The notes beneath the pieces are model-generated. The model was not told the origin of the DNA. It ran no database searches and saw nothing but the letters and a program-made list of their open reading frames with translations. Below are positions 7,288 through 27,775 of a stretch of DNA of 64,000 nucleotides, one piece after another; the stretch's first letter is position 1; each line of letters starts with the position of its first letter. Made by a program: the position numbers and the translations under genes. The stretch lies in the IMG/VR virus record IMGVR_UViG_3300042451_001197, positions 32,001 through 96,000 of that record. The stretch is one strand, 5' to 3'. The DNA comes from a virus.

Positions 7288-7839
7288 ATGAAAAAAGTAA
7301 TTGAAAACATTGGACTTTGGTGGAAATTTGAGGGTAGATATTACCACAAAGATTTTGTCAATGGTATTAAAAATCTAATCAGATGGTTTCCAACTATTTG
7401 GAAAGATAGAGATTGGGACGACCATTTCATTTGGGAAATAATGATGAAGAAAATTACCTTTCAAGCCGATTACATTGGTAAAAGAGATTTTCATACTCGA
7501 GCTAAACGTGATGCTGAAATAATGATGACCTGTGTTAGGTTGATGGGTAAAGTTCGTGAAGAGTATTACCATATGGAATATATGGATTATCACGAGTCTA
7601 CATATGATTTTGTTGATTGTGATACACCAGGACATAAGGAATTGAAAATCACTGAAGTATCTGAAAACTTTGATGACTACTTCAAAAAATATCCAAGAAC
7701 TTATAAAAATATTTTGAGTGAAAATCCCAATGAGTCAAAAAGTAGAATTGCGTCATTAATTTCTATGGAAAATCATAGAAAAGCAAAAAGAGTACTGTTC
7801 AAATTAATGGAGAATAATATAGAGGCTTGGTGGGATTAA
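7288..7839 (+). CDS. Hypothetical phage protein (start corrected from 7273)
   Basis: TATCTTTG-TATT-ATG; WFP.IWKDRDWD and terminal WWD motifs. Confidence 0.7.
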   Translation: MKKVIENIGLWWKFEGRYYHKDFVNGIKNLIRWFPTIWKDRDWDDHFIWEIMMKKITFQADYIGKRDFHTRAKRDAEIMMTCVRLMGKVREEYYHMEYMDYHESTYDFVDCDTPGHKELKITEVSENFDDYFKKYPRTYKNILSENPNESKSRIASLISMENHRKAKRVLFKLMENNIEAWWD

Positions 7840-7875
7840 TTTGGTAAATTAAAATAAATTTTGTATCTTCGTACT

Positions 7876-8082
7876 ATGATAATAAACATAACAACCTTGG
7901 ATTTTTTTACAATTAAACGTACTGTAGAATTTATTAAATCTCAACCTGATTATGATAATCAAGGGGTTAGAAAATACGTTTTCGATAGAGCTAAAGAATT
8001 AGGTATTTCTATTAGGGAGTGTATTGATGACTTACAAATATCTGCAATTGATTTATATGTTGACAAAAATTTTGTAAATTAA
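7876..8082 (+). CDS. Hypothetical protein (start corrected)
   Basis: TATCTTCG-TACT-ATG. Confidence 0.5.
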   Translation: MIINITTLDFFTIKRTVEFIKSQPDYDNQGVRKYVFDRAKELGISIRECIDDLQISAIDLYVDKNFVN

Positions 8083-8105
8083 AATAAATTACGTATCTTT
8101 GTATT
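8072..8105 (+). promoter_or_regulatory. Representative Bacteroidota sigma-A-type promoter (one of about 30 copies)
   Basis: TTTG-N~19-TATCTTTG-TATT-ATG; also at about 7277, 18702, 24542 (+) and 34624, 45708, 57805, 59820, 60401, 61152, 62410, 63482 (-). Confidence 0.8.
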
Positions 8106-8795
8106 ATGAAAATCACATTTATATCCGACACTCACAATAAACACAATCAGATAACCAAAGATTTACCAGGTGGTGATTTGTTGATTCATGCTGGTGATAT
8201 ATCTTCGATGGGATATAAACACGAAATTCAACAATTTTGTAAGTGGTTTAATGGTTTAGATAATTACACTAATAAAATCTTTATCGCTGGTAATCACGAT
8301 TGGGGATTTCAAGACAACCCAGAACAAACCAAAGAAATTTTAGATTTCTATAAGAATATTACTTACCTACAAGACCAAATCGATATGATTGGTGAAAATA
8401 CTGAAGATATGATTAAGGTATGGGGTAGTCCTTGGCAACCTGAATTTTATAATTGGGCTTTCAATCTACCTCGTAATGGTGAGGAACTAAAAGGTAAATG
8501 GGATTTGATTCCTAATGATATTGATATTCTAATAACACACGGACCTGCTTGGGGTTATGTTGATAAAATTTTTGGTAGTCAAACTCCGTTAGGTTGTGAA
8601 CTACTGACCACAAAAATAAAGGAAATAAAACCAAAAATTCACGTTTGCGGACATATCCATAGCGCTCGTAATGTAGTTTTTGATGGAAACACTCATTTTA
8701 TTAACGCATCTGTATTAAATGAGAGTTATTTTTACGATTACAAACCATTCACGGTAGAATGGAATCCAAAAACAAATGAAATTGAGTTCCTGTAA
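8106..8795 (+). CDS. Calcineurin-like metallophosphoesterase (MPPED/239FB-like)
   Basis: SDTH, HAGD, AGNHD, ITHGP, GHIH motifs. Confidence 0.92.
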   Translation: MKITFISDTHNKHNQITKDLPGGDLLIHAGDISSMGYKHEIQQFCKWFNGLDNYTNKIFIAGNHDWGFQDNPEQTKEILDFYKNITYLQDQIDMIGENTEDMIKVWGSPWQPEFYNWAFNLPRNGEELKGKWDLIPNDIDILITHGPAWGYVDKIFGSQTPLGCELLTTKIKEIKPKIHVCGHIHSARNVVFDGNTHFINASVLNESYFYDYKPFTVEWNPKTNEIEFL

Positions 8796-21253: not shown

Positions 21254-21586
21254 ATGAAATTTGAGATAGGTGACGATAAATTGGAACAGGTAATCTTTAA
21301 GTATTTAGATAGAAAAGATTTCATTATTGAGGAGACTGATGATGACTATTATTTTTTAGAAGATAAGAGTGATATAATTTCTAGGATTAGGGTTAAAAAA
21401 GATAATATGTATTGTCTTGTTCATTATAAATTATCAAAAGAACTTAAAACATTTTTTTCACTAAACGATGATTACTTAATTAAGGTATTAACAAATTATG
21501 TTAATAAAACTTTGGATATTAAATTATCAAAAATTGAAATAAAAAATGTTATTGGTTTATTCGTCGTTAACTATTGGTCTGAGTAA
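21254..21586 (+). CDS. MKFEI family paralogue
   Basis: KLEQVIFKYLD.K.F.I.ET...YYFLE...TFFS...YVNKTLDIK. Confidence 0.75.
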   Translation: MKFEIGDDKLEQVIFKYLDRKDFIIEETDDDYYFLEDKSDIISRIRVKKDNMYCLVHYKLSKELKTFFSLNDDYLIKVLTNYVNKTLDIKLSKIEIKNVIGLFVVNYWSE

Positions 21587-22271: not shown

Positions 22272-22697
22272 ATGAAACTACAAGAACAAATACATAGAAT
22301 ACAAGAGATGATGGGTTTGAATGAGGATTATAAACCTATGGGAAAGAAACATAAACCAAGTAAATTTGTTTATCATAAATCCCCGCCTTTGGTTAGAGAT
22401 AGTATTCTTAAATCAGGTTTATTGGTATCTGTTGGTGATTGTTATAAAACATACTCTGAAAACTTTTCTAAAGAAGAATGTGTTCCCGCTGTGTTTGCAA
22501 CTGATTCTGAAAATGAAAATTATTGGTATGAATCAACTTGGGATGATGATGTTTGGATGATTGATACAGAATGTGCTGGTGTTACTTGGTATAAAGATAA
22601 TCATTATGAAGATTATGATTACCATATTGTCACCTTTGAAGATATATCTCCCGATTGTATAAAATTAATCTATAAAGGAACGGGGGAAGATAATTAA
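22272..22697 (+). CDS. Leader protein with putative ADP-ribosyltransferase-like fold
   Basis: MKLQEQIHRIQEMMGLNE leader; VYHKS....RDSILKSGL, PAVFAT, WMID pattern typical of small ART/Tpt1-like domains. Confidence 0.5.
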   Translation: MKLQEQIHRIQEMMGLNEDYKPMGKKHKPSKFVYHKSPPLVRDSILKSGLLVSVGDCYKTYSENFSKEECVPAVFATDSENENYWYESTWDDDVWMIDTECAGVTWYKDNHYEDYDYHIVTFEDISPDCIKLIYKGTGEDN

Positions 22698-22698
22698 T

Positions 22699-23010
22699 AT
22701 GAAATTCGAGATAAGTGATAATAAGTTGGAGAAGGTTGTCTTTAAGTATTTGGAAGGTAAGAACTTTATCATTAGGGAAACCCCTTATGATTATTACTTT
22801 TTGGAAAACGAGGGCGATAAATATGTTCAAATTAGAATCAGAAAAAATGATATGGTTTGTTTTATTTATTACAAATTAAGTGAAGAAATTGAATCGTTTT
22901 TTTCAATTGAATTTCCTATGGTTAAAGATGTTTTAAAAAAATATGTTGAGAATATCCTAAATATTAAAGTATCTAAAACATTTTTATCTCCAACTATTTT
23001 AATTGCGTAG
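22699..23010 (+). CDS. MKFEI family paralogue ending in repeat-spacer unit
   Basis: Family motifs; ends YVENILNIKVSKT plus 9 unique aa. Confidence 0.75.
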   Translation: MKFEISDNKLEKVVFKYLEGKNFIIRETPYDYYFLENEGDKYVQIRIRKNDMVCFIYYKLSEEIESFFSIEFPMVKDVLKKYVENILNIKVSKTFLSPTILIA

Positions 23011-23028
23011 TTGAGAATACCTTAAATT
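22945..23028 (+). repeat. CRISPR-like mini-unit A (35-nt repeat, 30-nt spacer, half repeat)
   Basis: GTTGAGAATATCCTAAATATTAAAGTATCTAAAAC / 22980-23009 / GTTGAGAATACCTTAAATT. Confidence 0.7.
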
Positions 23029-23046
23029 AATCTATTTATGTAATAA

Positions 23047-23373
23047 ATGAAATTTTTAATAACAGAAAATAAATTGGATAATATAATCTTTCAGTATTTG
23101 GATAATAAGAACTTTATCATTAAAGAAACTCCTTATGATTATTACTTTTTAGAAAACGAAGATGATGAATATCTTCAGATTAGAGTTAGAAAAAGTGATA
23201 TGGAGTGTTCTTTATTCTATGATTTAACCGAAGAAATTAAATCATTTTTTTCAATTAATAAACTTAAAATCAAAGATGTTTTAACAAGATATGTTGAGGA
23301 GACCTTAAACATTAAAGTTTCTCACGTATGGATGGATGGGTCGTTACACATCTCGATGTTAAAAAAGGGTTAA
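23047..23373 (+). CDS. MKF family paralogue
   Basis: MKFLITENKLDNIIFQYLDNKNF. Confidence 0.75.
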   Translation: MKFLITENKLDNIIFQYLDNKNFIIKETPYDYYFLENEDDEYLQIRVRKSDMECSLFYDLTEEIKSFFSINKLKIKDVLTRYVEETLNIKVSHVWMDGSLHISMLKKG

Positions 23374-23376
23374 AAT
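23293..23376 (+). repeat. CRISPR-like mini-unit B (degenerate)
   Basis: GTTGAGGAGACCTTAAACATTAAAGTTTCTCACGT / 30 nt (23328-23357) / GTTAAAAAAGGGTTAAAAT. Confidence 0.5.
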
Positions 23377-23392
23377 ATTATATTTATGTTAT

Positions 23393-23749
23393 ATGAAATT
23401 CTTAATCACCGAAAATAAATTGGATAGGATTATTGATTCTTTTATCACCAAACAATTTGAAAATTTGGAACATATTAAAGAAGGTAATTTGGTTGTTTGG
23501 GTTGACCCTGATAAAAAACCATATGTACTTATTAGACACGATGATAATGGTGATTACGATATTAATATTTTGGAAAGTATTTATTTTTTGATTAGTGATA
23601 TGTTTTCTATTAAAGAACTTGAAGATGTGGAGAAATACTTATTAAAATGGTTTGAAAAACACACGGGGATGATTGCCGATGTTGTTTTCGCATTTGATAA
23701 CGATATAACCTATGAAGAAATTATTAGTATATATATTAAAGGTGCCTAA
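23393..23749 (+). CDS. ITE-leader protein, divergent family member
   Basis: MKFLITENKLDRIIDSFI...DMFSI...LLKWFE. Confidence 0.7.
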   Translation: MKFLITENKLDRIIDSFITKQFENLEHIKEGNLVVWVDPDKKPYVLIRHDDNGDYDINILESIYFLISDMFSIKELEDVEKYLLKWFEKHTGMIADVVFAFDNDITYEEIISIYIKGA

Positions 23750-23801
23750 CACCAATAAAGAATTTTACCGGTTTTTCAATTTATTGATAATACCTTAAAT
23801 T
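23733..23801 (+). repeat. CRISPR-like mini-unit C (3' half repeat, 30-nt spacer, 5' half repeat)
   Basis: ATATTAAAGGTGCCTAACAC / 23753-23782 / ATTGATAATACCTTAAATT; spacer lies outside the ORF. Confidence 0.6.
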
Positions 23802-23819
23802 AATGTATTTATGTAATAT

Positions 23820-24167
23820 ATGAAATTCTTAATCACCGAAAATAAACTTACCAAAGTTATTCAAAAATATATTAATTTTAAAACTAATGACCCTGAATTT
23901 AATTGGGTGGATAAAATTGTTATTGAACGTGGAACAACTGAAGGAATTGGTTCTGATATATTCCCCCTGTATACTTACAAAGTTTATTTTAAAGAAGATA
24001 ATCCCGATTACGAATCACAATTAAAATTATGGCATGTTATATCTTCCGCCCATAAGTTATTATTTCAATCGGATAATGAGGGAAATCCTGTGGCTTATTT
24101 TACCACATCTTCCATTAAACCTGATGGTTCAACTGATTCATTACCAAGCTATCAAAGTAAAAGTTAA
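23820..24167 (+). CDS. ITE-leader protein
   Basis: MKFLITENKLTKVIQKYI. Confidence 0.7.
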   Translation: MKFLITENKLTKVIQKYINFKTNDPEFNWVDKIVIERGTTEGIGSDIFPLYTYKVYFKEDNPDYESQLKLWHVISSAHKLLFQSDNEGNPVAYFTTSSIKPDGSTDSLPSYQSKS

Positions 24168-24183
24168 TGCATATTTATACCAT

Positions 24184-24504
24184 ATGAAATTCGAGATAAA
24201 TAGTGATAAATTGGGGCAGGTAATTTTTAAGTATTTGACTATTAAATTATCTATTAAAGAAACTCCCGACGGTTATTATTTTTCAGAAGATGGAAATAAT
24301 GCACATATTGTGGTTAGAAAAGACAATATGATTTGTTATGTTAGTATTGATTTTTTGGATGAAATTGAATCATTTTTTTCTATTGAATATCCTTACTCTA
24401 TAGATTTTGTTAGTGAATACGTTGAAAATATTTTAGGTGTTAACTTGCTCAGGACTGTACCATATCTTAAAAGTTGGATTGTTCCTCCCCCTGATAATAA
24501 TTAA
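24184..24504 (+). CDS. MKFEI family paralogue (start corrected from 24034)
   Basis: ATATTTATACCAT-ATG; MKFEINSDKLGQVIFKYL. Confidence 0.75.
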   Translation: MKFEINSDKLGQVIFKYLTIKLSIKETPDGYYFSEDGNNAHIVVRKDNMICYVSIDFLDEIESFFSIEYPYSIDFVSEYVENILGVNLLRTVPYLKSWIVPPPDNN

Positions 24505-24553
24505 TTAAAATTTTGTATTTGTTTATTTGATAATTTATCATTATCTTTGTATT

Positions 24554-25276
24554 ATGATTTCAGATAAAATTAAAAAAATTATATTTGATAAATTATATAA
24601 GGATTTATCTAATGTTGAGATTATTCCCCACGAAAATAGTATTTGGTTTATAGATAGGGAAGAGAAGTATTGGTATTTTGAATTTACCAAGTCAGGTGAA
24701 TTGTGGTGGAGATATTCTTTCTTTGTTGATTTTTTTCAGTTTTTTTCTATGGAATATAAGGAGTTTGTACCGATTATTAGTGAATGGGTGGAAGAGGTTT
24801 TGAATTCTAAGGTGTTTGAAACAGGGAAATTATTTTACGACTATGCACCTGAAGTGGAAGAGATATTAAATTCTAAGGTATCTACAACTGAAAGTTTATC
24901 CTTTAAGTCAGTAGGGTTGGTGGAAGAGGTATTAAATTTTAAGGTGTCTACAACTACTTCTAAATTTTCAAAAAAAAGCATTATGGTGGAAGAGGTATTA
25001 AATTCTAAGGTGTCTACAACTACGAAAAGACATTCCCCACATATCAGACAGGTGGAAAAAGTGTTAAATTCTAAGGTGTCTACAACAATTCAGGCACAAT
25101 TTCTTCTTCAGTCTCGGGTGGAAGAGATATTAAATTCTAAGGTATCGACAACTTGGTTAAATGGTTGTAATAGGGATGAAAAGGTTGGGGAAGTATTGGA
25201 TTGTAAGGTGACTGAAACCAAATTAGGTCCTACAAGTAAATTTTATGAAATAAATAAGGTTTTATCTCAAACATAA
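24554..25276 (+). CDS. Family-domain protein whose C-terminal two thirds is a translated repeat-spacer array (start corrected)
   Basis: TATCTTTG-TATT-ATG; 7 x VEEVLNSKVSTT-like block separated by unrelated 10-aa segments. Confidence 0.75.
   Translation: MISDKIKKIIFDKLYKDLSNVEIIPHENSIWFIDREEKYWYFEFTKSGELWWRYSFFVDFFQFFSMEYKEFVPIISEWVEEVLNSKVFETGKLFYDYAPEVEEILNSKVSTTESLSFKSVGLVEEVLNFKVSTTTSKFSKKSIMVEEVLNSKVSTTTKRHSPHIRQVEKVLNSKVSTTIQAQFLLQSRVEEILNSKVSTTWLNGCNRDEKVGEVLDCKVTETKLGPTSKFYEINKVLSQT
24787..25218 (+). CRISPR. CRISPR-like array inside a CDS: 7 repeats, 6 unique spacers, 66-nt period; no cas genes in window
   Basis: Repeat (G)GTGGAAGAGGTATTAAATTCTAAGGTGTCTACAAC starting 24788, 24854, 24920, 24986, 25052, 25118, 25184 (degenerate); remnant at 25250. 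Confidence 0.55.
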
Positions 25277-25307
25277 CTTAATTCAACATCTCATATATTT
25301 ATATGAT

Positions 25308-25616
25308 ATGAAATTCGAGATTAGTGGTGGTAAATTGGAACAAGTAATATTTAAATACTTGGACGGTAAAAACTTTACCATTAGGGAAACTCCAACCAAT
25401 TATTATTTTTTTGGTGAGCCTCCACACCATTACGCAACAATAAATGTTAGAAAAAGTGATGAGAAGTGTTTTATATATCCAAACCTAATTGAACATCTAT
25501 CTTCTTTTTTTTCTATTAGTGATATAATGTCAACTGACATTATATTAAAATATACCGAAAGTAAACTGAATAATGAATCAACTTCATTATCTCTAAAACT
25601 ATATGGTGATAATTAG
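25308..25616 (+). CDS. MKFEI family paralogue
   Basis: MKFEISGGKLEQVIFKYLDGKNF. Confidence 0.75.
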   Translation: MKFEISGGKLEQVIFKYLDGKNFTIRETPTNYYFFGEPPHHYATINVRKSDEKCFIYPNLIEHLSSFFSISDIMSTDIILKYTESKLNNESTSLSLKLYGDN

Positions 25617-25993
25617 TCGTTCACCCTCTCTATATTAACCATTTTACCATCAGTAAACTTAGCTGAGAACTCAAACCAAGTTTCATTAACATTTGTGTAG
25701 AATCTAACATATCCGTGGTGATTAATTGTCTCAAGTCTTTCGTTAACTCTTCTTAAACAACCAAAAAGATTAGATATTCCAACCTCATTCATATATGGTC
25801 TTTCTTCATTTGGAACTTCTTCCATTTCAAACCTGTTAACTTTAATCTCACCTTCATTGGTTATGTAAATTTCAGTTAATTCTCTGTCAAAATCCTTTGT
25901 CTGAAATTCGTGATTTTCACCAATTAGTTCCTTTTCTTCTTTTGTTATTGGAAGTAAATTTGTATCAATAAATAAGTAATCGAACATTCCCAT
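25613..25993 (-). CDS. Hypothetical phage protein
   Basis: MGMFD...FQTKD...HG.VRFY...W.EF.AKFTDG; TACCTTTG promoter upstream. Confidence 0.7.
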   Translation of the reverse strand: MGMFDYLFIDTNLLPITKEEKELIGENHEFQTKDFDRELTEIYITNEGEIKVNRFEMEEVPNEERPYMNEVGISNLFGCLRRVNERLETINHHGYVRFYTNVNETWFEFSAKFTDGKMVNIERVND

Positions 25994-26052
25994 ATCTTTT
26001 TCTTTTTTACAAAGGTAATAAAATATTATGGGAAAAACAAATATTTATTAAT

Positions 26053-26379
26053 ATGAATTTTGAGATTAACGAAAACAAATTACAAAATATTGTCTTCAAG
26101 TATGTGGACAATAAAAACTATGTCATTAAAGAAACTGATAATGATTATTACTTTATAGAAAACGAAGAAGATGAGTATGCTCAGATTAGAATTAGAAAAA
26201 GTGATAAAGTTTGTGTTATTTATCACAAATTAACTGAAGAAATTGAATCGTTTTTTTCAATTGAATACCCTATGGTTGAAGATGTTTTAACGAGATATGT
26301 TGAGAATACCATAAATATTGAGGTGTCTAAAACCCTATTAGGTATAAATCTTAAAGCAGAAGCGTTGAGAATACCTTAA
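26053..26379 (+). CDS. MKFEI family paralogue ending in repeat-spacer unit
   Basis: Ends YVENTINIEVSKT plus 10 unique aa plus LRIP. Confidence 0.75.
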   Translation: MNFEINENKLQNIVFKYVDNKNYVIKETDNDYYFIENEEDEYAQIRIRKSDKVCVIYHKLTEEIESFFSIEYPMVEDVLTRYVENTINIEVSKTLLGINLKAEALRIP

Positions 26380-26382
26380 ATT
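26299..26382 (+). repeat. CRISPR-like mini-unit D (35-nt repeat, 30-nt spacer, half repeat)
   Basis: GTTGAGAATACCATAAATATTGAGGTGTCTAAAAC / 26334-26363 / GTTGAGAATACCTTAAATT. Confidence 0.7.
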
Positions 26383-26397
26383 AAACTATTTATCATT

Positions 26398-26766
26398 ATG
26401 AAATACCTAATCACAGAAAATAAATTAGAAAAGGTTGTCTTTAAATTTTTGGATGGTAAAGATTTAAAAATGATTAAGAAAAAAATTAAACATTATAGTA
26501 ATATCACAAGTACTAGAATATTTTTTGTTTTAAATGAGTCTGATAAAACTTCTGAAATAACTTATGACGGTTGGAGTGGTAAACTTTTTATTAGTTCCGT
26601 TTTATGTGATGAGGTTTTTAATTTCTTTTCTCTTGAGGATGAGGATGATTCTGAATTAATAATTCAAGATTGGGTTGAATCGAAAATTAATAAGGAAATT
26701 GATATTTTTAAAGTACAATCATATCATCCCAATAGTTTTTCAGGAAGTATTTTTGAGATTGATTAA
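26398..26766 (+). CDS. ITE-leader family paralogue
   Basis: MKYLITENKLEKVVFKFLDGK...NFFSL...IQDWVE. Confidence 0.7.
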   Translation: MKYLITENKLEKVVFKFLDGKDLKMIKKKIKHYSNITSTRIFFVLNESDKTSEITYDGWSGKLFISSVLCDEVFNFFSLEDEDDSELIIQDWVESKINKEIDIFKVQSYHPNSFSGSIFEID

Positions 26767-27155
26767 AAGGTTTCTAATTCGCCATCAAATTCATCACAGG
26801 ATTTAACTTTTTTGTGATAAACATCCACAGGAATATTTGTAAAGTTATGAGTATAATCCCAAGCGTCGTCCATTAGTTTGTAATACATATCTTGGACTTT
26901 CATTGTTTGAGGCCAAAACTTGGTTCCGTAACCACCAATTACATAAAGAGTGACACTATAATGTTTGTATTTTGGTTGTCCTTCTAAAACTTCTCTATTG
27001 TCGGGATGTGTGACCTCAATCTTACATACAGCATCTTTATTTGGTTCAAGAATGGTTTGATTTAATAATGTCTCAATTAGTCCTGACAAATCTTTTTTGG
27101 ATTCGTTTAAAGACATCATTGATTGTATTCTTGATATTTGTTCTTGTAGTTTCAT
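26763..27155 (-). CDS. MKLQEQI-leader protein
   Basis: MKLQEQISRIQSMMSLNE, same leader as 22272 ORF with an unrelated body. Confidence 0.7.
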   Translation of the reverse strand: MKLQEQISRIQSMMSLNESKKDLSGLIETLLNQTILEPNKDAVCKIEVTHPDNREVLEGQPKYKHYSVTLYVIGGYGTKFWPQTMKVQDMYYKLMDDAWDYTHNFTNIPVDVYHKKVKSCDEFDGELETF

Positions 27156-27166
27156 TCCTTTTCAGA

Positions 27167-27775
27167 TTATTTTAAATTATTACTATCAGGTAAGTTTAAA
27201 AGAACACCCTCATTTCTCGAAAGATAATTATCTATTATTCTAATTATTTCAGGGGTCATATTTGGTATATCAGATATTTCAAAATTAAAACCCCATAATG
27301 GATTATCTTCCATATCGTATATACCATTTTCTGGTGAGTAATATACAATATTGGTTGCGAAGTTATTTATGTCATTTGATATTGTGACATAATAGTCACC
27401 CATCTCTTGTTCGTTTTTAAATTGATAACCTAATATTTCACAAACATCCGCAAAACGATATCCACCTTCATCCCATCTTGACATAATTAAAATCTCTGAT
27501 GGTATTGGTTGTCCTGTGATACCTATCTTTTCTTTCTTTGGTTTTCTTTGAATGATAACCGCGTGTTTACCTTTATGGTAATCTTCCCACTCACCAACAT
27601 CACTATTAATACACCATTGACAGAAACTTGCGTATTTCTGTAAAGCCTTATGTGTTAATGGAACAACCACAATAACATTATCGTCTTTGTAAAGTTCAAC
27701 TTTTTCTTTTTTTGGAACTCTTACTTCATTAAGTTCTTCCTTTAATATTCTTCTTATGGTTTGTTGTAAGTTCAT
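27167..27775 (-). CDS. Leader protein, unknown function
   Basis: MNLQQTIRRILKEELNE; VPLTH.A..KY....QWCI. Confidence 0.7.
   Translation of the reverse strand: MNLQQTIRRILKEELNEVRVPKKEKVELYKDDNVIVVVPLTHKALQKYASFCQWCINSDVGEWEDYHKGKHAVIIQRKPKKEKIGITGQPIPSEILIMSRWDEGGYRFADVCEILGYQFKNEQEMGDYYVTISNDINNFATNIVYYSPENGIYDMEDNPLWGFNFEISDIPNMTPEIIRIIDNYLSRNEGVLLNLPDSNNLK

Follow-up and report, generated by a model that had tools for sequence, protein, structure and literature searches.

Units of repeat, insert and partial repeat at the ends of jumbo-phage genes as probable minimal forms of translated CRISPR-like arrays

Why should several neighboring genes of a lake-water phage end in a repeat, about 30 nt of unrelated sequence, and a truncated second copy of the same repeat, in the manner of CRISPR arrays? 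The genes in question lie on IMG/VR virus record IMGVR_UViG_3300042451_001197, a 106.8-kb record with an estimated completeness of 36% and a G+C content of 29%, of which bases 32001 to 96000 (64,000 nt, here called the window) were analyzed. The proteins of the record are similar to those of jumbo and huge phages, the phage host is probably Flavobacterium, and window DNA is present in 24 lake-water metagenome runs. Between window positions 21254 and 26766 there are at least 10 tandem paralogues of about 100 amino acids (aa) each, which follow the pattern MKFEINENKL...SFFSI...YVENxLNIKVS and then a variable tail. On balance, it is probable that two of the gene ends (units A and D) represent the minimal, one-insert form of "translated CRISPR-like arrays" in a large gene family of Bacteroidota jumbo phages, made by CRISPR-adaptation-type integration, with a third (B) being an old fixed copy and a fourth (C) a remnant. 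The observations behind this reading are the geometry of the units, their unrelated inserts, the swap of an insert between orthologous loci, the open frames, the likeness of the repeats of relatives to CRISPR repeats, and the host-derived inserts in sister arrays.

Family gene A (22699 to 23010, 103 aa; all features are on the plus strand unless stated otherwise) ends in ...YVENILNIKVSKT followed by the tail FLSPTILIA, as judged from the open reading frame (ORF) list and the family alignment. Its full repeat (22945 to 22979) consists of the codons of VENILNIKVSKT, the translated insert of 29 to 30 nt follows at 22980 to 23009, and a partial repeat comprising the 5' 19 to 21 nt (23010 to 23030) provides stop codons in all three frames. 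Family gene D (26053 to 26379, 108 aa) carries a full repeat at 26299 to 26333, an insert at 26334 to 26363, and a partial repeat at 26364 to 26384 that is read in the −1 frame as LRIP*. Both units have the same layout, namely, a 35- to 36-nt repeat, an unrelated insert of 29 to 30 nt, and an exact 19-nt copy of the 5' half of the repeat. A preliminary description of the window had assigned this layout to four loci, and it applies as described to A and D. In family gene B (23047 to 23373, 108 aa), a repeat (23293 to 23327) and an insert (23328 to 23357) are followed by a degenerate partial repeat (23358 to 23376) that matches at only 12 of 19 positions; the B tail is conserved in the related contigs L006 and L200 with synonymous changes only (all three of the substitutions between B and L006 are synonymous). 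Gene C (23393 to 23749) shares only the N-terminal leader with the family and has its stop codon inside a stretch resembling the 3' half of the repeat (23731 to 23752). Beyond it lie an untranslated 30-nt stretch and a partial repeat with two mismatches (23783 to 23801), together spanning 23753 to 23803, which are conserved and were read as a remnant: the 30-nt stretch is identical in L006, and a Flavobacterium metagenome-assembled genome has a contig in which the stretch, half repeat, and promoter show 78% identity over 76 nt. We read A and D as units with one insert each, B as an older copy that has become fixed, and C as what is left of a unit.

The 19-mer half repeat, beginning GTTGAGAATACC, occurs exactly at 23010 and 26364 and with two mismatches at 23783, and the full repeats of A and D match it with two to three mismatches, giving five matches in total where 0.13 was expected; no further copy was found in the rest of the 107-kb record. 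In A, B, and D the two copies start 65 nt apart. The distal copy has left the reading frame in A, where a TAG stop overlaps it, and in D, where it is read ...ALRIP*, so that it is conserved as DNA and not as protein. Each partial repeat adjoins the TATTTAT motif of the next gene, an arrangement also present in the preliminary description: the motif lies at 23033 to 23039 with the next ATG at 23047 behind unit A, and at 26387 to 26393 with the next ATG at 26398 behind unit D.

Relatives were taken from about 40 viral and metagenome contigs and from four whole phage contigs. To measure spacing, the protein motif was used as an anchor and the next copy of its first 12 nt was sought at offsets of 45 to 90 in contigs G000 to G004 and about 70 loci. 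Among 28 distinct terminal units, in which a partial copy follows, the offset was 65 in 14, 66 in 8, and 67 in 6, plus two strays at 84 and 85. Among 55 distinct internal units, in which a full copy follows, it was 65 in 6, 66 in 44, and 67 in 5. The terminal units of the solitary subfamily of the VENT type, taken alone, gave 65 in 14, 66 in 5, and 67 in 6, and L007, a distant phage with a family identity of 27% and a different repeat sequence, displays the same design at 65, 66, 65, 65, and 65. As the offsets are confined to 65 to 67 apart from the two strays, the spacing does not vary freely; the earlier claim of an insert of exactly 30 nt has to be widened to 29 to 31 nt when homologues with periods of 65, 66, or 67 are considered. 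Tails of the 65 type share the C terminus ...L(R/K/N)IP(N/K), encoded by the −1 frame of the partial repeat (G000, G001, L022, L200, L204, and L229 to L243), and selection for this ending might account for 65 being commoner than 66.

The inserts, by comparison, have nothing in common. The 17 distinct solitary inserts were no more alike than shuffles (mean local score of 5.31 versus 5.28, maximum of 10 versus 11), upholding the statement that the spacers are mutually unrelated, and they do not align as diverged homologues. At locus D, the window and L006 share 92% identity over the gene body, 92% over the repeat, and 99% downstream, while the inserts are 52% identical and unalignable, that of L006 being 2 nt longer (31 nt). 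At the same locus L199, with a gene body 91% identical to that of the window, has kept the insert at 28 of 29 positions, and its one change in the comparison is synonymous. As the L006 insert is unalignable between conserved flanks, and as the equally diverged L199 has kept its insert, the difference is one of replacement, not of divergence. Within IMG/VR the L006 insert was found only in its own contig. Other states were also encountered, including two-insert intermediates in G001, L204, and L007; a lake-metagenome contig from which exactly one 66-nt unit of the in-frame array of the window is absent (24797 to 24864); another (run X4) in which 26038 is joined to 26384, gene D having been removed exactly between two TATTTAT promoter motifs; and one insert standing behind two neighboring genes in L007. 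The preliminary description had proposed dispersed mini-arrays in a gene family that give each paralogue a C-terminal peptide of its own, and the sharp geometry, the unrelated inserts, the swap between D and L006, and the Cas13b-like repeats of relatives bear this out.

Many family members carry in-frame C-terminal arrays, in which a 12-aa motif alternates with a 10-aa variable segment. One of them is a sister gene in the window (24554 to 25276), the 3' half of which (24787 to 25276) is an in-frame array of seven 36-nt repeats, each with a 30-nt insert, and a degenerate last repeat. Across the sister subfamily the arrays consist of 36-nt repeats and 30-nt inserts, and the period is always 66 (209 offset hits). 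Closely related array contigs have their distal inserts in common and differ near the gene body, and the insert orders in related arrays are compatible with a single ancestral order and internal deletions. The first repeat of the array in the window (24787 to 24852) is degenerate, with nine mismatches; its first insert is shared with the metagenome variant L201 (1076 to 1206) and its second differs, placing the start of the variable end of the window array at the second repeat.

To trace the origin of the inserts, the array regions were each searched against about 400 Flavobacterium genomes. Four of about 58 array inserts matched Flavobacterium chromosomal genes, and in three of the four the match begins or finishes exactly at the repeat borders. 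Insert 4 of the window array (25021 to 25050) reproduces, at 30 of 30 positions, part of an HxlR-like regulator gene carried by a contig of a Flavobacterium chromosome (E value of 1.3e-7 per genome); the identity is lost at the repeat border on either side, and in the phage the segment is read in another frame. This gene copy, bounded exactly by repeats, supports the earlier view of mini-arrays embedded in a gene family. An insert in L021 matches an aldehyde-dehydrogenase gene at 28 of 30 positions in two genomes, with a match exactly as long as the insert and in the native frame; an insert in L012 matches at 27 of 30 positions, from insert base 1, antisense to a transporter gene; and an insert in L204 matches an M28 peptidase gene at 24 of 26 positions over the insert core. 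At the last of these protospacers (L204, 1052 to 1153, compared with L217 to L219), the upstream sequence AATACAA equals the 3' end of the repeat and, 4 nt downstream, GGTGGAAAAGGT equals its 5' end, which represents either microhomology-guided capture or chance. A 3' AAA flank was considered as a protospacer-adjacent motif; it was present at three protospacers and failed at the fourth.

Outside the host genomes, no insert matched in its own record and none convincingly in about 810 kb of related jumbo-phage DNA (G000 to G004 and the loci), nor was there a convincing match in 50,697 GenBank phage records. The insert of unit A in particular had no match in its own genome, the related phages, or 401 Flavobacterium genomes. 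A 28/30 match of an insert to Pelagibacter phage HTVC119P straddles a repeat border and was taken as chance, and many AT-rich hits of solitary inserts in Flavobacterium genomes (E values of 1e-5 to 1e-2) were dismissed as they fall on promoters or gene starts.

The relationship of the repeats to those of known CRISPR systems was examined by scanning 185,579 genomes for the 3' motif of the array repeat at a period of 66. At least 120 loci were identified, nearly all of them Bacteroidota arrays, and Cas13b, of type VI-B systems, adjoins both of the host arrays that were checked (NF038190, E values of 7e-235 and 2e-210). A sequence-only model of 61 host Cas13b repeats, for which RNAalifold gave no consensus pair, returned 20 hits at an E value of <1 in 551 kb of phage DNA, of which 18 to 19 fell on family repeats; the host set had been gathered with the 3' motif of the phage array repeat and is to that extent biased. 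By position weight matrix (PWM), repeats of the array type match on the sense strand with scores of +7 to +34 and those of the solitary VENT type on the antisense strand with scores of +4 to +27, compared with −45 ± 10 for shuffles, the strand orientation being uncertain as Cas13b repeats are partly palindromic. Solitary repeats that fit better in antisense include L033 (2625 to 2660), L035 (15614 to 15709), L006 (6893 to 6928), and L204 (221 to 256). On the antisense strand the parts run in the order repeat stump, spacer, and full repeat, which is the order of a Cas13b CRISPR RNA (crRNA). A fold of the repeat, put forward in the preliminary description, was recovered for the composite repeat and for relatives (L200, −10.4 kcal/mol, z = −3.5; L204, −7.3 kcal/mol), where it compares with −10.9 kcal/mol (z = −2.5) for the Cas13b repeat of Flavobacterium columnare, but A lacks it (−0.4 kcal/mol, z = +0.6), D shows it weakly (−5.3 kcal/mol, z = −1.5), and the G001 type gave −2.5 kcal/mol. 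The hairpin is not conserved across units.

That the inserts are translated sequence is indicated by their frames. All 102 internal array inserts are open in the frame of the gene, compared with 41 to 73 in the other frames and a probability of 0.53 for a random insert, and 25 of 28 terminal inserts read through to the partial repeat (0.53 expected per insert). The codon-position composition of array inserts departs from a stop-filtered random model (G1, 0.28 versus 0.22 ± 0.012), a shift that is about what capture from coding DNA together with an open-frame filter would give. The partial repeat then stops all frames, with the 65 type ending ...L(R/K/N)IP(N/K), the 67 type in GGT TGA, and the 66 type in ...(V/I)ENT. 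The inserts are kept open in the gene frame and are under purifying selection, judged from the few substitutions available between orthologues (three of three synonymous in B and one of one in D). Within the repeats, the fraction of identical codons is 0.76 to 0.83, compared with 0.48 to 0.57 in gene bodies, between genes that are 30 to 70% identical; silent sites of the repeats are thereby constrained, and constraint acts at the DNA or RNA level as well as at the protein level.

These results can be accommodated in one scheme. The final ~36 nt of the family coding sequence specify the close of the last helix together with a strand and, in relatives, also resemble a type VI-B repeat in sequence character. 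CRISPR-adaptation-type integration may insert DNA of about 29 to 31 nt at this repeat and duplicate it; we infer the integrase step, and likewise a common origin of solitary and array inserts. The likely agent would be the Cas1-Cas2 of the host, working in trans. Such supply is documented for the VI-B array of F. columnare, which lacks a Cas1 and acquires its spacers, often of host origin, through the type II-C Cas1 (PMC8092290); Flavobacterium repeats of the Cas13b kind are listed in PMC5395568. The distal copy would survive as a 5' stump of 14 to 21 nt fused to the promoter region of the next gene, with a stop codon in every frame, and translation of the insert would give each paralogue its own tail of 7 to 16 residues. 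Later turnover could proceed by new insertion and repeat-repeat deletion or by cassette exchange through recombination at the repeats. Taken further, and more tentatively than the reading of the units themselves, the host adaptation machinery may be lured to the repeat-like last codons of a multicopy phage gene, where it would write in ~30 nt of mostly host DNA as new translated tails; arrays would grow when an insert keeps the frame, and the same RNA may also engage Cas13b.

Several observations weigh against an origin of the units by such integration. Although integration duplicates a repeat in full, the distal end invariably holds just a stump, and an extra truncation or inheritance step is therefore needed. 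Terminal units favor 65 over 66 and 67, whereas host arrays center on 30-nt spacers. The repeats of A and D in the window are weak as Cas13b repeats (PWM scores of −19/−8 and −16/+4) and gave no hit at an E value of <1, and the solitary type as a whole fits Cas13b repeats better on the antisense strand. No consistent flank motif was present at the four protospacers. No Cas1 (PF01867) or Cas13b (NF038190) was found on six phage contigs (G000 to G005) that are 36 to 82% complete, the Cas13b search having been run without a positive control; host cas genes could act in trans. Finally, none of 13 solitary inserts had a counterpart among GenBank phages, in about 810 kb of DNA from related phages, or in 401 Flavobacterium genomes. 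At the rate seen in the arrays (4 of ~58), about one match would be expected among 13, and the zero therefore says little.

Cassette exchange without any integrase acting on solitary units today is an alternative. The repeat and partial repeat would be homology arms by which tails are swapped between paralogues or coinfecting phages through recombination or gene conversion, and the spacing of 65 to 67 would be inherited and kept since the arms must flank the cassette. The shared insert behind two neighboring genes of L007 is what such exchange would produce, and whole genes have evidently been gained or lost between promoter motifs, as in the 26038-to-26384 junction of run X4 and in genes A and B, which form a 348-nt tandem duplication with 75% identity (22739 to 23426) and correspond in L006 to one gene whose head is A-like and whose tail is B-like. 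The module of partial repeat and promoter is conserved across distant phages, and at one array protospacer the flanking host sequence looks like the ends of the repeat. Exchange alone, however, provides no source for unrelated inserts of 29 to 31 nt, of which the 17 solitary examples have nothing in common, and the sister arrays hold exact pieces of host genes whose flanks, in two or three of the four cases, lack homology. We regard it as an unlikely sole explanation. A plain tandem duplication of the C-terminal coding segment, with later divergence and a chance likeness to CRISPR geometry, is disfavored and appears very improbable: the repeat is a conserved protein motif and part of the fold, and B and C behave as ordinary conserved sequence, but this process would not place an unalignable insert between flanks of 92 to 99% identity, conserve out-of-frame distal copies as DNA, hold many lineages to just three adjacent spacings, bring host-derived inserts into sister arrays, or leave repeats near-identical even at silent sites next to inserts that cannot be aligned.

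A role at the RNA level, suggested in the preliminary description, was also weighed, in which the units would be transcribed and bound or processed by host Cas13b, either as decoys (RNA anti-CRISPRs) or as guides. From sequence evidence this seems rather improbable as the main explanation. It draws on the likeness to Cas13b repeats, which for the solitary type is best in antisense and in the crRNA order of parts, on the strong hairpins in L200 and L204, on the constrained synonymous sites and multicopy nature of the repeats, and on the precedent of solitary repeat units with a demonstrated RNA anti-CRISPR function in other CRISPR types (PMC10651486). The units nevertheless lie inside ORFs rather than in intergenic positions behind their own promoters, A and the G001 type lack a hairpin on the sense strand, the inserts are open and under purifying selection, which a decoy would not need, and no insert matches a phage among related jumbo phages or GenBank phages. 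Integration at the gene ends remains the reading we prefer, and an engagement of the same RNA by Cas13b would be an addition to it.

Compared with known systems, the units most resemble the VI-B arrays of Bacteroidota, with which they share a 36-nt repeat, a spacer of about 30 nt, repeat likeness of up to 27 to 28 of 36 positions, host-DNA inserts in the sister arrays, a degenerate distal repeat, and the absence of adjoining adaptation genes. As in CRISPR arrays generally, the repeats are of fixed length and the spacers unique and near constant in size (period of 65 to 67, inserts unrelated). CRISPR arrays are noncoding, however, whereas the phage units lie inside protein-coding genes and their inserts are translated and kept free of stops in the gene frame; in addition, solitary units have one insert and a truncated distal repeat, the repeats vary by 10 to 15%, and there is no cas13b nearby. 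Mini-CRISPR arrays with one or two spacers are carried without cas genes by viruses of Sulfolobales, where they are noncoding, target related viruses, and act in intervirus conflict. The phage units are like them in consisting of repeats that enclose one or two spacers on a viral genome lacking cas genes, but their inserts are translated and none matches a phage. Ectopic ("neo-CRISPR") spacer integration at repeat-like sites outside arrays is a rare laboratory event in bacterial chromosomes and, to our knowledge, is known only as such. At an isolated repeat-like site it would produce exactly the order repeat, insert, and repeat; in the present case the event would recur, take place on phage DNA, and have its products kept by selection. 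Cyanobactin precursor genes of the PatE type contain hypervariable cassettes between conserved recognition sequences and thus also have conserved flanks, identical even at silent sites, around unrelated peptide cassettes of fixed length. They differ from the family described here, in which no processing enzymes were seen, the flanks are CRISPR-repeat-like, and the cassettes can be copies of host genes in another frame. The RNA anti-CRISPRs (Racrs) are likewise isolated CRISPR-repeat-like sequences on phages, away from cas genes and possibly in multiple copies, but they are intergenic small noncoding RNAs with their own promoter and no spacer (PMC10651486), while in the phage family the full repeat makes up the final 12 codons of a conserved protein domain and is accompanied by an insert and an incomplete second copy.

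The survey of viral solitary repeat units that described the Racrs found every CRISPR type represented except type VI (PMC10651486), and a 2026 survey of freshwater jumbo phages reported no CRISPR arrays (PMC13573597). The published full texts searched contained no account of translated arrays or of units of this kind at gene ends. New here are the solitary units and their spread of 65 to 67, together with the stop in three frames, the swap between orthologues, and the likeness of the repeats in antisense. If the proposed origin is true, these are the first type VI-like repeat units reported on viruses, the published survey having found none; CRISPR-type spacer integration is not confined to immunity loci and also acts on protein-coding genes of phages; and new peptide sequence arises in discrete steps of 10 residues, of which the one-insert units are the simplest visible product. 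This would constitute a new route of protein diversification and a new interplay of phages with the adaptation machinery of their hosts. The reading is directly testable in F. columnare, which has a tractable II-C/VI-B system and cas1 mutants.

The gene family itself is large, with 832 representative clusters at an E value of ≤1e-3 in a family profile search. The 35-nt "repeat" codes for YVENxLNIKVS, the C-terminal helix-strand motif that is conserved in the family alignment, and in the AlphaFold (AF2) model of protein D (predicted local distance difference test score of 90.5) it spans the last part of the final helix and the strand after it. In some family members the repeat is translated in a shifted frame. 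Pfam and PHROGs hold no family matching these paralogous proteins, the PDB gave no clear match by sequence or by fold (best Z score of 4.9), and the matches in BFVD were to uncharacterized phage proteins only. Rfam returned no match within the window at the gathering threshold, and a megablast search of 10 kb against GenBank phages was likewise without a match.

A few further features of the region were noted. A second set of small genes has only an N-terminal leader in common (MKLQEQIxRIQxMM...) and otherwise unrelated bodies; its members were identified in the window at 22272 to 22697 (plus strand), 26763 to 27155 (minus strand), and 27167 to 27775 (minus strand) and in L006 at 7359 to 8269 (minus strand), and their leader is a counterpart to MKF(E/L)I(T/N)ENKL, the leader of the paralogue family described above. 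Similarly, the stretches at 23393 to 23430 and 23820 to 23857 consist of near-identical gene-start DNA (ATGAAATTCTTAATCACCGAAAATAAA...) in front of unrelated bodies. Such near-identical starts before unrelated bodies suggest promoter-plus-leader modules that are shuffled by recombination. Upstream of the window, on the minus strand of the source record (G000:C1:26318-28180), a 620-aa protein with the N terminus MGKIIGIDLGTTNSCVAV... is DnaK/Hsp70-like.

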